Assembly (NCBI RefSeq): GCF_016026235.1
Contig: NZ_CP065613.1
Origin: Escherichia coli
Lineage (GTDB): Bacteria > Pseudomonadota > Gammaproteobacteria > Enterobacterales > Enterobacteriaceae
Strand: one strand, 5' to 3'
Length of the DNA: 64,000 nt
Below are positions 30,001-36,000 of this stretch, one piece after another. A program made the position numbers. How positions within the stretch are numbered: position 1 is the first letter of the stretch; every line of letters begins with the position of its first letter.

Positions 30001-33000
30001 AGCGTAAGAGAACGAATGAAATTACCAATTAGAATGAGTAGTTCCTTAACGGAATAACGATTTGGCAAAGCTAATATCAAAAAGTGCTTAAGGCACCGGA
30101 TTTCGGGCGTTTAGGAAGATTTGAAATTGTTTTAGCGCAGCGGCAGTTTCATACTATGGCGGTAAAAAAATTTGCATGGTATTTAAGGACTCACTATGTT
30201 TTCCGCATTGCGCCACCGTACCGCTGCCCTGGCGCTCGGCGTATGCTTTATTCTCCCCGTACACGCCTCGTCACCTAAACCTGGCGATTTTGCTAATACT
30301 CAGGCACGACATATTGCTACTTTCTTTCCGGGACGCATGACCGGAACTCCTGCAGAAATGTTATCTGCCGATTATATTCGCCAACAGTTTCAGCAAATGG
30401 GTTATCGCAGTGATATTCGGACATTTAATAGTCGGTATATTTATACCGCCCGCGATAATCGTAAGAGCTGGCATAACGTGACGGGAAGTACGGTGATTGC
30501 CGCTCATGAAGGCAAAGCGCCGCAGCAGATCATCATTATGGCGCATCTGGATACTTACGCCCCGCTGAGCGATGCTGACGCCGATGCCAATCTCGGCGGG
30601 CTGACGTTACAAGGAATGGATGATAACGCCGCAGGTTTAGGTGTCATGCTGGAACTGGCAGAACGCCTGAAAAATACGCCTACCGAGTATGGTATTCGAT
30701 TTGTGGCGACCAGCGGCGAAGAGGAAGGGAAATTAGGCGCTGAGAATTTACTCAAGCGGATGAGTGACACCGAAAAGAAAAATACGCTGCTGGTGATTAA
30801 TCTCGATAACTTAATTGTTGGCGATAAATTGTATTTCAACAGCGGTGTAAAAACCCCTGAAGCAGCAAGGAAATTAACGCGCGACAGGGCGCTGGCAATT
30901 GCGCGTAGTCATGGAATTGCCGCAACGACCAATCCGGGTTTGAATAAAAATTATCCGAAAGGCACTGGGTGTTGTAATGACGCAGAAATATTCGACAAAG
31001 CGGGCATTGCTGTACTTTCGGTGGAAGCGACTAACTGGAATCTTGGGAATAAGGATGGTTATCAGCAACGCGCAAAAACAGCCGCATTCCCTGCGGGAAA
31101 TAGCTGGCATGACGTAAGACTGGATAATCAGCAACATATTGATAAAGCACTTCCTGGAAGAATAGAACGTCGTTGCCGTGACGTTATGCGGATAATGCTA
31201 CCGCTGGTGAAGGAGTTGGCGAAGGCGTCTTGATGGGTTGGAAAATGGGAGCTGGGTGTTCTACCGCAGGGGCGGGGAATTCTAAGTGATATCCATCATC
31301 GCATCCAGTGCGCCCGGTTTATCCCCGCTGATGCGGGGAACACAATGACTACTGCTTTCGAAATTTATAGTGCGGCGGTTTATCCCCGCTGGCGCGGGGA
31401 ACACAGGACTGTTTTATGTTGCCGGTACAGCTCCAGCGGTTTATCCCCGCTGGCGCGGGGAACACGAATTTGGGGTGATGCAGCGTCATCAGTCGGCCGG
31501 TTTATCCCCGCTGATGCGGGGAACACCAGCGTCAGGCGTGAAATCTCACCGTCGTTGCCGGTTTATCCCTGCTGGCGCGGGGAACACCTTTAGGCAAGGG
31601 GATCCCCTGCCAGCTATGGCGGTTTATCCCCGCTGGCGCGGGGAACACACTAAGCATACATATCTGTTTTTAAACAAATTTATTCCACATCAACAATCTA
31701 CCAACTAAATTCAAACATTTCCTTATTTTTAAAGAACACATAACCTATTGATTATCAACAGGAAGAAAAGAAACCAAACGTAACCCATCCAAATCCACCG
31801 GAATACGTCTGTTTTCTCCCCAGGTCTGAAATTCAAAACCCGACTCGGTATTGGTCGCCCAGGCCATCACCACATTTCCGCAACCAGCCAGTTGGGTAAT
31901 TTGCTGCCAGATCATCTCCCGAATACGTTTTGATGTATCACCAACATACACACCGGCACGCACTTCCAGTAGCCAGATTGCGAGCCGTCCACGTAAGCGC
32001 GGCGGGACATTTTCTGTAACAACCACGACCATGCTCATCAGCCGCGTCCTCGATGACCGCTATCGCCCAGCGTTTCAGGTTCGGGGATGGCTGGCGGTAA
32101 CATATCCGGCGCAGGTTGTGGCGGTTCAATTTCACCTGCGGCAAGGACTTCCTCAATTAACGGTATTAATTTGCCCGTTAACTTAGTGCTACGGAAAATA
32201 TCACGACAGGCTAATCTGACTTCTTTATCAGGTTCTGCGGGTTGCCTCGCCGCTATTTCAAATGCCTTTGGTACAACCGAATCAAATTTAATGATATCGG
32301 CTATGTCATAAACAAATGAAAGCGGTTTGCCACTATGAATAAATCCAATAGCGGGCGCATATCCCGCGGCTAATACTGCCGCTTCAGAAATACCGTACAG
32401 ACATGATGTGGCAGCACTGATGCAGCGATTCACAACATCGCCTTTTTCCCAGTCTTTAGGATCGTATTTGCGACCATTCCATTTCACACCATATTGTTTC
32501 GCCAGTAATGCATAGGTCTGGCGAACGCGGGATCCCTCAATTCCCCGTAGCTGATCCACTGAACGGCGAGCTGGCGGTGGCTCACGAAAACGTAATTCAT
32601 ACATTTTGCGCACCACCTTCAGGCGTAGATCTTCCGTTAAAGCCAGCTTTGCCTGGTAGAGTAATTTATCTGCCCGCGCCCCTCCGGGTTGTCCGGAAGA
32701 GTAAACGCGAACGCCCGCTTCACCGACCCAGACCAGCAGTGTTCCCACCGTGGCGGCCAGATGCACCGCCGCGTGGGAAACTCTCGTTCCCGGTTCGAGC
32801 ATAATGCAGGCGACCGATCCCACCGGAATGTGCGTGCGGATCCCGGTTTTGTCGATCAGCACGAAAGCGCCGTCCAGTACGTCGATTTGACCGTACTGGA
32901 GGAAGATCATAGAGGTGCGATCTTTTAACGGGATCGGACTCAGTGGTACAAACGTCACACCTCTGCTCCGGGTTTGATCAGCATCAGACCACAGCCGAAC

Positions 33001-36000
33001 GCGCGGCTTTTGCCATACCCCTGACTGAGACGTTGCAGAAATAACCCGGGATCGGTGACCGTAAGCATCCCCGTATAATCCACGCTACTGAACTGGATCA
33101 GTTGCCAGGAGTTTTCCCGCCGCAGTTGCTGTTGTCGGTAGGCATCAACCGAGGTATCCAGCAGTGTAAAACCGCTTCTCTCCCCCTGCGCTGCCAGCCA
33201 GTCCAGCGCCGCCTGTTGTTGATGCAACCAGACATCACTTCCTTCTGCCTGCCCCCTCATCTGCCGTTTCGCCTCCATCAGCAGATCGTGGCGCTTGCCC
33301 GCTTTACAGATTGTTGGATTCGCCCGCAGGTTGAAACAAAGTTGTTGTCCGGTACGCAGCTCGGGCACAAATGACCGGCATTCGATGGTGAACGTTTCAC
33401 TTTCCGCCGGGCGTTCCTGCGACAGTACAAAAAAGCGAAACGCGCCCTGGAGTTCTTCCCGACGATAAAGAAATTGCCTTTCTTTGCCGCCAGGGAAGAG
33501 ATCCCACAGCCACTGATGCATCACATATTCCCCGCGATCCACCAGATGCAGCAACTGCGCAGGCGAAAGCTGGCCGGTATGTAAGGTTATTCTTGAGAGG
33601 TACATGGTTCCTCCTTGCTGAGCCACGGCCCCTGATTGACGGTGCGTTCCCCAAACAGCCATTGCTGACGATTTAAAGGAACATCCCGGCGGCGCAATAT
33701 TTTGCTCGCGACCAGGCCGTCGTGCTCCCCTTCCCACCAGCATTCATCCTGAAGTTTCGGGAGTGCGATTTTCAGGTCGTGGAAATGCTCCTGATACTGG
33801 TGATATGCGTTACGTAAAACATCAGACGCGTTGCCTTCGAGCAGTAACGGCGCAAGTGGTAATGCCAGCGGATGACTTTTTCGCCCCAGATAAAGAGGAA
33901 AAACTGGATGGCGTAAACCGCCCTGCAACTGTTCGAGGCTGTAAGGCGCATCGGCTGTTGTTGCCACCGCCACCATCCACCAGGCGTCGGTGTAGTAGTC
34001 GCGCCGGGAGATAATCGCGCTCAGAAGATCAGGGTCGCTCAACTCTTCGCGACGGCTGAAATAACGCGCTTTACGCACCTCTTTTGGCATCTGGATCGTG
34101 TGATAATCCCGTGCCCAGCGCGGGTTACGGCTGGCGCAAACCACCAGTGAATAGTGGCGATTAAACGCGTTTAAGCGTTCGGTATCATCACGCCGAATCC
34201 CTACCCCGGCAGCCAGCAGACCCAGCAATGCTGAGCGCAAAGGCAGTTCATGGGTATGACGCACTTCGCCGGGGGCATCGACGCCCCAGGATGCCATTGG
34301 CCCATGAAGCTGAAAAATCAGATATTGGCTCATAAGCCGCCCCTTACGCGCAGATAAAGTCCAGCACGTCCTTCATGCTTCCCTGTTTGTTCATCACGTC
34401 AAAACTTGCGCATTCGGTCTTCTGTTCGTAGACCGTATTCATATTTTCGCGAAGCGTTGTAATACGCTGCACCGCCACGTCTAACTGCCGGGTGCCATTA
34501 ATGGGTTCATAGAAGGCCGCAGCCAGAGAACGCGGTTGATCGGTGCCTTTTTCCGCCAGCGCCCAGGAAGCATAGGCACGGCTGGCAAAGCTATTTTGTT
34601 TACCGGTTGGGGAAACTTTAAGCGCGGCTTCCGTAAAAGCGCGTATGGTCTGATTAGCTAACGCTTCGTCACCGCCGAGGTTTTCTACCAGCAGATCTTT
34701 ATCAATGCAGATATAGGTGTAGAAAAGTGCTGAACCGAATCCGGTTTCTCCGAGATGCCCGGCACCGGCATCTTCAGAGGCCTAGCGCAAATCATCAACG
34801 GCGGTGAAAAAATCATCTTCGACAATCGTTTCACTGACACCAAACGCATGCGCGACCTGGCAGGCGGCTTCAACATTAAACTCAGGTTTATTCGCCAGCA
34901 TACGACCAAACATAGCGATATCTACCGCTATACGGTCTTTACGTAACAACGCGAGATCTTCCTCTTTTGGCGCGCGCTTTTCTTCTGCCAGTTGATGGGC
35001 CAGCGCTTTTACGGCGTCAAATTCTGCCGGGCTGATATGAACTAATTGTTCAGTTTCGGCGTTAGTGAGCGGATCTTTTGGTTTTTTGTCGTTTTTAGCT
35101 TTCCCAAGATAATCCGCAATTTTTGCCGCCCATTCGATGGCTTTTTTCTCTTCGATGCCTTTCTCAATCAGGATAGTTGCCGCCTCACGCGCAATTCGCC
35201 CACTGCGAATACCAATATGGCCCGCCAGTGCCTGTTCAAAAAGTGCAGAAGTGCGCCACGCACGTTTCAGACTTTGTGAGGAAACGCGCAGACGCGTTGC
35301 ACCACCCAGTACCACAGTTTTTGGCGCACCAGTATCATCACGGTTAAGGTTGGCAGCAGGGTAAGCGGTTAACAAATGAAGCTGAATAAATGTTGTCATG
35401 AGATAGTCCTTTATTAATTTTGTTCGTTATCGGCGTCGCCAGCCTGGTAATATTCCAGTGCCCAGCGGATACGGATAAATTCGGTTGGCCGCTGCTGGCG
35501 GCGGTGATGATTGAGCAGGTCGTCGCTCTCCTGGCACCAGCGGAAAATATCTTCTGCCAAAGAGATAAGATTGACGGAACCGTTTAATAATTTGACCGCG
35601 CGACGTAACTGACGCAGTAAATCATCCGGCGTTTTTACTGCCGACAGGCGAGTAAAACGCCCCTCCGACATTACCGCCGCCAGCTGCGCGGCAAAAGGCT
35701 GCCGTTCATCAATGGCTTTTACATTGGCGCTAACTGCGGCGACCAGCGCCAGTGCGGTAAAACGCCACTCTTGTGCTTCAATTTTCCACAAAGTGTGGGT
35801 CTGCATCAGCAGAGAACGAAACCCTTCTGACAAGCAAACATCATTAACCGTTGTGCTACGCCGCAGACTGGCACGATTGCCGCGTTTAGCCTGCAACTCT
35901 TCGTGCCATTTACGCAGCGTGGCTTTGTGCTCCTCTTTTACAATACTCATTCAGCAGCCTCCTGCTTTTTCTCCCTGGCGGCGTTAGCATTTTGCTTCTC

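Follow-up and report, generated by a model that had tools for sequence, protein, structure and literature searches.

The cas-E1 form of the type I-E CRISPR-Cas locus, with its L1 leader, is the majority variant of E. coli and has also been called 'cas-EO', after O157:H7 (Almendros et al., 2014, PMC3903273; Diez-Villasenor et al., 2013, PMC3737337); the L1/E1 nomenclature used here is that of PMC3903273. The experimental model, E. coli K-12, carries cas-E2. In Shigella and Salmonella the cas loci degrade by frameshifts, truncations and IS elements (Touchon and Rocha, 2010, PMC2886076), and loss of cas-E1 is driven by IS (PMC3903273). Decay of cas-E1 in Shigella and E. coli, the kind to which the first-pass annotation had likened the present locus, is already documented (PMC2886076, PMC3903273).

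Here we describe such a locus in a 64,000-nucleotide stretch of E. coli DNA (contig NZ_CP065613.1; the window). The order is iap-array-cas2-cas1-cas6e-cas5e-cas7e-casB-casA-cas3, co-oriented on the minus strand, and all eight type I-E signature genes are found, six of them whole (cas1, cas2, cas6e, cas5e, casA and casB) and two broken (cas7 and cas3). The features are as follows.

31254..31648, minus strand: CRISPR array (CRISPR2.1 / CRISPR-I), 29-nt repeats, 61-nt spacing, six 32-nt spacers
31649..31744, minus strand: leader of the L1 (cas-E1-associated) type, 96 nt
31745..32038, minus strand: cas2e, intact, 97 aa; TIGR01873 133.8 bits (cut-off 33.15), profile positions 1-87 of 87
32038..32958, minus strand: cas1e, intact, 306 aa, GTG start; TIGR03638 380.6 bits (cut-off 215.6)
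32955..33605, minus strand: cas6e (casE), intact, 216 aa; TIGR01907 288.8 bits (cut-off 45.2), profile positions 1-207 of 208
33587..34333, minus strand: cas5e (casD), intact, 248 aa; TIGR01868 155 bits; 98.8% identity to E. coli ZF8-1
34344..35399, minus strand: cas7e (casC) pseudogene, amber at codon 206 (34782-34784; C>T at 34784)
35414..35950, minus strand: casB (cse2), intact, 178 aa; TIGR02548 102.3 bits; intact E. coli loci can have the same casB length
35947..37509, minus strand: casA (cse1), intact, 520 aa; TIGR02547 607.2 bits; full-length alignment without stops
37607..40295, minus strand: cas3 pseudogene, 11-bp deletion (AGGGTTTGTTT) at codon 334 of 899, near 39295
40477..41782, minus strand: ISEc60 (IS4 family), inserted 182 nt upstream of the cas3 start; right end approximate

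Each complete cas gene scores above the curated cut-off of its own NCBIfam I-E equivalog, and the fragments pass their own models (TIGR01869 for the Cas7 fragment, the cas3_HD and cas3_core domain models for the two Cas3 fragments). Annotated E. coli loci of the cas-E1 type encode proteins 92.8-99.7% identical to those of the window, and from Cas7 to Cas2 the identity to orthologues from intact E. coli loci is 99-100%. Of 5426 complete E. coli genomes, at least 2391 contain at least 80% of the queried locus region. The locus is the chromosomal iap-cysH type I-E locus of the common cas-E1 variant, with the features by which that variant is defined. It shares with other cas-E1 loci the chromosomal site (iap ... 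hok/cysH), the gene order and the leader, and differs from them by the cas7 amber, the cas3 11-bp frameshift deletion, ISEc60 upstream of cas3, and xdhD in the place of hok/cysH.

With K-12 the window shares the subtype, the array position, the 29-nt repeat except at position 2, two ancient spacers with variant repeats, and Cas1 and Cas2 at 84% and 86% identity with the Cas1 active site kept. In contrast, the leader is different and the Cascade subunits and Cas3 are only ~20-33% identical to those of K-12; Cas1 and Cas2 close to K-12 beside a distant Cascade and Cas3 is the pattern of E1 versus E2 (PMC3903273). The cas3-casA intergenic region also differs, being 97 nt in the window and 414 nt in K-12, so that K-12 promoter and H-NS/LeuO data may not transfer. 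The degraded Shigella and Salmonella loci (PMC2886076) resemble the window in having pseudogenised interference genes beside intact-looking cas genes, in the involvement of IS elements and in array shrinkage with erosion, but decay in the window is far less advanced: the lesions are two and small, and none of the cas genes contains an IS.

The first-pass annotation had called cas7 and cas3 disrupted, and the lesions can now be named: an amber at Q206 and an 11-bp frameshift deletion, respectively. The cas7 gene is collinear and in frame with the reference, from which it differs at 2 of 1056 nucleotides; one of these changes makes TAG of CAG (Q206), and the frame after the TAG is fully preserved. 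The truncated Cas7 comprises 205 of 351 aa and matches the TIGR01869 profile (325 positions) over 1-206 only. Compared with the intact allele of the clone-mate L002, the cas3 deletion falls just past the GAGKT helicase motif, between motif I and motif Ia, and leaves a 378-aa fragment with the HD domain and motif I and a 557-aa open reading frame with the remaining helicase. A complete Cascade with its Cas7 backbone together with a full-length Cas3, as interference needs, is absent from the window.

In the cas7 codon context CGC|CAG|GCC, which becomes CGC|TAG|GCC, the mutated base is the inner C of a Dcm site, CCAGG. Amber hotspots at CCAGG, arising through deamination of 5-methylcytosine, were classically described in lacI. 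The cas7 case shares with them an independently recurring CAG>TAG change at the inner C, and sequence context makes deamination of a Dcm-methylated cytosine the probable source of the amber. The Q206 amber occurs on three different cas7 alleles, where it arose independently, although the related loci were found through the exact 205-aa truncated product, so that recurrence at Q206 is not comparable with other sites. In one relative (L007) the amber C>T is the sole difference from the intact cas7 of E. coli TUM13936; in another (L004) the same C>T lies on an allele 24 nt away. Among complete E. coli genomes having this cas7 segment, the amber was found in 0 of 2488. The position of the amber on a Dcm-site cytosine and its independent recurrence are the only mildly new point of the locus, probably a small, tidy example of a methylation-driven hotspot in a defence gene.

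The adaptation and processing genes are in a different state. As the first-pass annotation had it, cas1, cas2 and cas6e are full length at the coordinates listed above: all three match their NCBIfam models end to end, and their proteins are ~99% identical to intact-locus orthologues (99.0-99.3% for E. coli ZF8-1, which has an intact locus). Hidden lesions in Cas1 or Cas2 were also looked for, and none was found. The catalytic residues E141, H208 and D221 of Cas1 are conserved, residues 1-304 align with PDB 3nkd/4p6i (the K-12 structure), and at every position where Cas1 differs from ZF8-1 the window has the K-12 residue. Cas2 shows a single difference from ZF8-1, M58, again the K-12 residue. 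Cas1 lacks the last Gly of the 307-aa allele (GGA>TGA at the final codon), an allele also present in L004. This one-codon shortening and the length of casB were considered as lesions and rejected, as other backgrounds and intact loci show equal lengths. Cas6e differs from ZF8-1 by two substitutions (W167 and V216); on alignment with K-12 CasE no lesion was found in it, His30 aligning with the catalytic His20 and the C-terminal glycine-rich loop GxGxxxxxGxG being kept. A strong Shine-Dalgarno sequence, AAGGAGG, precedes cas6e.

The array with six spacers and a leader, reported in the first-pass annotation, is confirmed, with the qualification that the sixth spacer is bordered by a degenerate repeat. 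Six canonical 29-nt repeats (31315-31648) are followed by a degenerate terminal repeat (31254-31282); repeat matches occurred in 0 of 100 shuffled sequences, none being expected by chance. With the sixth spacer adjoining the degenerate repeat, a normal crRNA from it is unlikely. The repeat is predicted to form a hairpin of -15.2 kcal/mol (z = -3.2); repeat 2 (31559-31587) has a C.A stem mismatch (-9.0 kcal/mol) and two variants have an ATCA loop (-14.4 kcal/mol). An Rfam scan gave no family, CRISPR-DR included, at the gathering score. The window and K-12 MG1655 have spacer 2, the terminal anchor spacer and the variant repeats of both in common, and the repeat variants (the GCAGGG stem mismatch and the ATCA loop) were therefore rejected as recent damage, since K-12 has the same variants beside the same spacers. 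The leader is identical to those of the intact loci of E. coli ZF8-1, Z1322HEC0005 and RM9245. No protospacer was found for the six spacers in 50,697 phage and 72,556 plasmid records, the sole matches being CRISPR arrays in mis-filed records. In the literature only spacer 2 was found, as the MG1655 spacer for a control protospacer (PMC12669028).

Everything on the requirement list for a Cas1-Cas2 adaptation module (PMC3384332) is present: full-length Cas1 with E141/H208/D221, full-length Cas2, at least 60 bp of leader and at least one repeat. The earlier proposal that acquisition is possible 'in principle' stands, given that overproduced Cas1 and Cas2 are enough for naive acquisition in work on K-12 and O157:H7 (PMC3384332, PMC3737337). 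The intact adaptation and processing genes follow the amber codon within one gene string whose coding regions overlap or abut, and polarity may reduce their expression. The untranslated cas7 tail has no clear C-over-G bias and is uninformative on Rho-dependent polarity; a promoter/terminator consensus scan of the locus, with fewer matches than shuffled sequence, is equally uninformative.

Nine related places, out of 38 index blocks, were compared. The clone is an IS-carrying lineage of the E. coli/Shigella clade, with one complete genome in RefSeq as E. coli (FDAARGOS_943). Both the cas7 amber and the cas3 deletion are present in the window, L003, L006, L008 and L009, and the amber also in L002, L005 and L010; their occurrence in several independent assemblies shows that they are not sequencing errors. 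L002 and L005 combine the cas7 stop with an intact 899-aa cas3, and the cas7 amber preceded the cas3 deletion. In the window ISEc60 joins cas3 to xdhD in place of hok/cysH, whereas L002 has the same ISEc60 and the native hok-cysH flank. Spacers number seven in L005, six in the window, three in L002 and two in L010, and the arrays differ by loss alone. The leader-proximal spacer is common to all clone arrays read except that of L010, whose shorter array lost it, and no new leader-proximal spacer was seen in those arrays, a comparison in which a relative with a new spacer could be missed. FDAARGOS_943 has no cas genes; there the order is iap, degenerate terminal repeat, ISEc60, hok, with a flank 100.0% identical over 7.2 kb. 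In L004, an independent lineage with the same cas7 stop, cas1 itself has stops at codons 122 and 133. Comparison with related genomes, which the first-pass annotation had proposed as a check, gives no sign that the genes are being kept: what it reveals is spacer loss, a broken cas1 and whole-locus deletion. Within the clone cas1 and cas6e show zero substitutions, which fits purifying selection or recency alike, the test having no power.

We consider it highly probable that this is a cas-E1 type I-E locus in early neutral decay in an E. coli/Shigella-clade clone. ISEc60 would have landed upstream of cas3, and codon 206 of cas7 would have become an amber when the inner C of CCAGG mutated to T; later, in a sub-branch, cas3 would have lost 11 bp, and recombination at ISEc60 would have re-joined cas3 to xdhD, in at least the window and L003. 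Without Cas7 there would be no Cascade backbone and without Cas3 no target degradation, so that interference is presumably dead, as is primed adaptation, which needs both proteins. The genes cas1, cas2, cas6e, cas5e, casA and casB would be intact simply for want of time for hits, with no sign of being kept. Given transcription, repeat cleavage by Cas6e and, in principle, spacer insertion by Cas1-Cas2 would still be possible; the strain may retain some crRNA processing or on rare occasions acquire a spacer naively, to an extent expected to be negligible in the wild. The locus is probably weakly expressed and neutral, and the next steps would be those of its relatives, namely loss of spacers, of cas1 or of the whole locus.

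The first-pass annotation had thought the asymmetry of the decay worth documenting, and it could be read as selective: selection would have favoured the loss of interference, for instance because a useful plasmid or prophage had to be tolerated or autoimmunity avoided, while Cas1-Cas2 and/or Cas6e were kept for naive spacer uptake, Cas1 DNA repair or crRNA-based regulation. The window's two lesions do both fall in interference genes, Cas1, Cas2 and Cas6e show no detectable defect, and Cas1-Cas2 alone suffice for acquisition when overproduced. However, cas1, cas2 and cas6e make up 1869 of the 8475 coding bases, and the probability that two random lesions spare all three is P=0.61; chance alone gives the asymmetry 61% of the time, and it does not exceed chance. 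The interference-only genes casA, casB and cas5e are as intact as the supposedly retained set, the clone shows spacer losses and no gains, L004 has a broken cas1 and FDAARGOS_943 has lost the locus entirely, and spacers matching no phage or plasmid, mis-filed CRISPR arrays aside, make no conflict with a known element visible. The independent amber on three cas7 alleles would allow selection rather than just a mutational hotspot, but its absence from the 2488 complete genomes counts against this, and we regard selective decay as unlikely. A stronger form, in which the Q206 amber is a recurrent, positively selected 'off switch' for interference, eased by the Dcm site and leaving Cas1-Cas2 and Cas6e for a non-immune role, seems very unlikely; if true, the parallel hits in three backgrounds would mean that host-restricted E. 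coli/Shigella-like lineages are under selection to lose Cascade activity.

That the locus still functions, with a suppressor tRNA reading the amber or the Cas3 fragments reassembling, or with the lesions being sequencing errors, is barely credible. The perfectly kept cas7 frame past the TAG would fit such a reading, as would the fact that other type I subtypes naturally have a split Cas3, with its HD and helicase parts on separate proteins, but the cas3 break lies between motif I and Ia and not at the HD/helicase boundary of natural split systems. Furthermore, wild E. coli seldom carry natural amber suppressors, and the lesions recur across the clone assemblies. With two small lesions, six intact genes and relatives that lose the rest later, the pattern needs no special explanation.

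The appropriate annotation would be a non-functional type I-E system in which cas7 and cas3 are pseudogenes, rather than an active defence, and beyond this the locus has little import. The clone nevertheless offers a clean and datable decay series, from IS insertion and cas7 amber through cas3 deletion and inversion to spacer loss and whole-locus deletion, which shows how quickly silent E. coli CRISPR-Cas loci erode and cautions that which genes break first need carry no selective meaning.

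On its minus strand the window has the CRISPR-Cas region known classically from the iap-cysH interval of E. coli; its parts are listed below.

30196-31233, plus strand: iap, with the array and cas genes downstream
31254-31648, minus strand: CRISPR array, six canonical 29-nt repeats and a degenerate terminal repeat
31649-31744, minus strand: leader, 96 nt
31745-32038, minus strand: cas2, complete
32038-32958, minus strand: cas1, complete
32955-33605, minus strand: cas6e, complete
33587-34333, minus strand: cas5e, intact
34344-35399, minus strand: cas7e, broken
35414-35950, minus strand: casB, intact
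35947-37509, minus strand: casA, intact
37607-40295, minus strand: cas3, broken

The repeat pattern is matched six times in the window and not once in 100 shuffles, and the array, as the first-pass annotation had it, holds six spacers, each of 32 nt, next to a leader that matches the one in intact E. coli loci at every base. The K-12 array has two of the window's spacers, spacer 2 and the terminal anchor spacer, along with the odd repeats beside them; PMC12669028 gives spacer 2 as an MG1655 spacer. One of these repeats has a C.A mismatch in its stem (folding at −9.0 versus −15.2 kcal/mol) and the other an ATCA loop variant; since K-12 has the same repeats beside the same spacers, new damage was rejected as their origin and the variants are ancient. 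A perfect IHF consensus (AATCAATAGGTTA, matching WATCAANNNNTTR) lies at 31738-31750, where the far end of the leader meets the cas2 stop codon, which it overlaps.

Each complete protein scores far above the curated cut-off of its NCBIfam type I-E equivalog. Gene by gene, the locus is 94-100% identical to annotated loci in thousands of E. coli genomes; relative to K-12, Cas1 and Cas2 are 84-86% identical, whereas the Cascade subunits and Cas3 reach only about 20-33%. On these identities the locus is assigned to the majority cas-E1 variant with an L1 leader, the K-12 system being a minority E2 replacement (PMC3903273). The cas3-casA intergenic region is also far shorter, at 97 nt (37510-37606) versus 414 nt in K-12. 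In K-12 this region holds the H-NS-silenced Pcas promoter, and, given the difference in length, promoters in the majority E. coli variant may be arranged differently from those of the K-12 model.

The two lesions are where they had been reported, in cas7 and cas3, and both are small. The cas7 gene is collinear and in frame with that of the intact reference locus of E. coli ZF8-1, differing at 2 of 1056 bases, one synonymous and the other converting CAG (Gln206) to TAG at position 34784. In cas3, compared with the intact, otherwise near-identical allele of a clone-mate, 11 bp (AGGGTTTGTTT) are missing at codon 334, immediately past the GAGKT helicase motif. The amber change (CGC-CAG-GCC to CGC-TAG-GCC) falls in a CCAGG Dcm site (34783-34787 on the window plus strand, with the coding-strand inner C formerly at 34784) and turns the inner cytosine into T. 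Deamination of 5-methylcytosine makes such sites a classical hotspot of amber mutation, and the operon holds 21 potential Dcm-amber codons.

The cas1, cas2 and cas6e genes are indeed full-length, their products being 99.3%, 99.0% and 99.1% identical to those of ZF8-1, and the equivalog matches of Cas1e, Cas2e and Cas6e extend essentially end to end. Hidden active-site lesions in cas1 or cas2, a concern raised on first reading, were not found: Cas1 residues 1-304 align with the K-12 crystal-structure sequence with E141, H208 and D221 conserved, and at the few positions where Cas1 and Cas2 depart from ZF8-1 they have the K-12 residue. Cas1 is one glycine shorter through a GGA>TGA change, an allele also present in an unrelated background. 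Cas6e is 27% identical to K-12 CasE; in the alignment its His30 falls opposite the catalytic His20, and it retains the glycine-rich loop at the C terminus. Because casA, casB and cas5e are likewise intact, the true contrast is between six intact genes and two broken ones, and not, as first proposed, between an adaptation module and an interference module. The amber codon is followed downstream by intact genes whose reading frames overlap or abut in one string, and polarity from the amber could reduce their expression.

The exact 205-aa Cas7 fragment is recorded in 38 index blocks, of which nine places were read; seven of the nine belong to one clone, essentially identical to the window over the locus and its flanks. 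Two members (L002 and L005) carry the cas7 amber with an intact 899-aa cas3, and four (L003, L006, L008 and L009) carry both amber and cas3 deletion, as the window does, so the amber came first and the deletion later. An A61V change at codon 61 of cas2, in the sub-branch of L006 and L008, is the sole substitution in cas1, cas2 or cas6e seen within the clone.

In the window (interval 40477-41990), as in L002 and L003, the insertion sequence ISEc60 (IS4 family) lies 182 nt upstream of cas3. Its far flank is the native hok-cysH in L002, and xdhD in L003 and in the window (41991-44861). The complete genome of E. coli FDAARGOS_943, of the same clone (100.0% identity across window 24000-31240), also has ISEc60 at the native xanQ-xdhD junction. 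Since ISEc60 is thus present at both cas3-hok and xanQ-xdhD, the xdhD-ISEc60-cas3 junction of the window is best explained, on these comparisons, by a large inversion between two ISEc60 copies; a deletion would cost about 135 kb of K-12-equivalent sequence, essential genes among it. FDAARGOS_943 has lost the array and all eight cas genes (21234-22600 of L016, NZ_CP065615.1): the order is iap, degenerate terminal repeat, ISEc60, hok, cysH, with the terminal repeat, the sole remnant, abutting the ISEc60 end. This genome, labelled E. coli, has at least 36 ISEc60 matches together with IS1, IS5-family, ISSfl1 and ISSso6 elements, an IS load resembling that of Shigella/EIEC. The window rpoS (20150-21210, minus strand) is interrupted near codon 192 by a premature in-frame stop, after which the frame is preserved; that of FDAARGOS_943 is annotated as frameshifted, apparently by another lesion.

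The same amber is carried by three different cas7 alleles, and the events are therefore independent. Besides the clone allele, L007 has one that matches the intact cas7 of E. coli TUM13936 at all but the amber base, and the allele of L004, an independent lineage, is 24 nt away, with one difference just three bases from the mutated position. These loci were retrieved by an exact query with the truncated product, which permits no comparison with other sites. TAG is absent from all 2488 complete RefSeq E. coli genomes having this cas7 segment, so the allele is rare.

Could the remaining genes be active or retained? With overproduced proteins, naive acquisition needs only Cas1, Cas2, at least 60 bp of leader and one repeat, casABCDE being dispensable (PMC3384332), and E1-type Cas1-Cas2 of O157:H7 acquires spacers from a multicopy plasmid, although detecting insertion in E. 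coli requires Cas overproduction (PMC3737337). The suggestion that the locus could acquire spacers in principle is, by analogy with this work, a fair one. The clone arrays differ by internal loss only (seven spacers in L005, six in the window, three in L002 and two in L010), and the leader-proximal spacer is identical in every member with an array read except L010, where it is lost. Primed adaptation requires both Cascade and Cas3, and, judging from K-12 Cascade, Cas6e-cut crRNA is expected to be unstable in the absence of a Cas7 backbone. In L004 (Logan SRR13609853; cas1 at 8744-9664), cas1 has two in-frame stops within 11 codons, both transversions (TTA>TGA at codon 122 and TCA>TAA at codon 133). 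A GAT>GAG change near the two stops makes an unusually tight cluster of changes. Together with the deleted locus of FDAARGOS_943, the related genomes argue against any ongoing activity or retention of the intact module. The genes cas1, cas2 and cas6e make up 1869 of 8475 coding bases, and two random lesions miss all three with P = 0.61. The observation itself is correct, but chance and time account for all that the asymmetry reading sets out to explain. A selected off-switch role for the Dcm-site amber, with Cas1-Cas2 or Cas6e function retained, is very improbable.

Locus degradation through frameshifts, truncations, IS insertions and deletions is on record from 2010-2014 onward, most extreme in Shigella; in Salmonella, cas3 and cse1 pseudogenes can adjoin apparently intact genes, and arrays shrink as systems erode (PMC2886076, PMC3903273). 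The window locus belongs to an already known system, and its state of decay is known as well; the recurrent Dcm-site amber is the one mildly new point.
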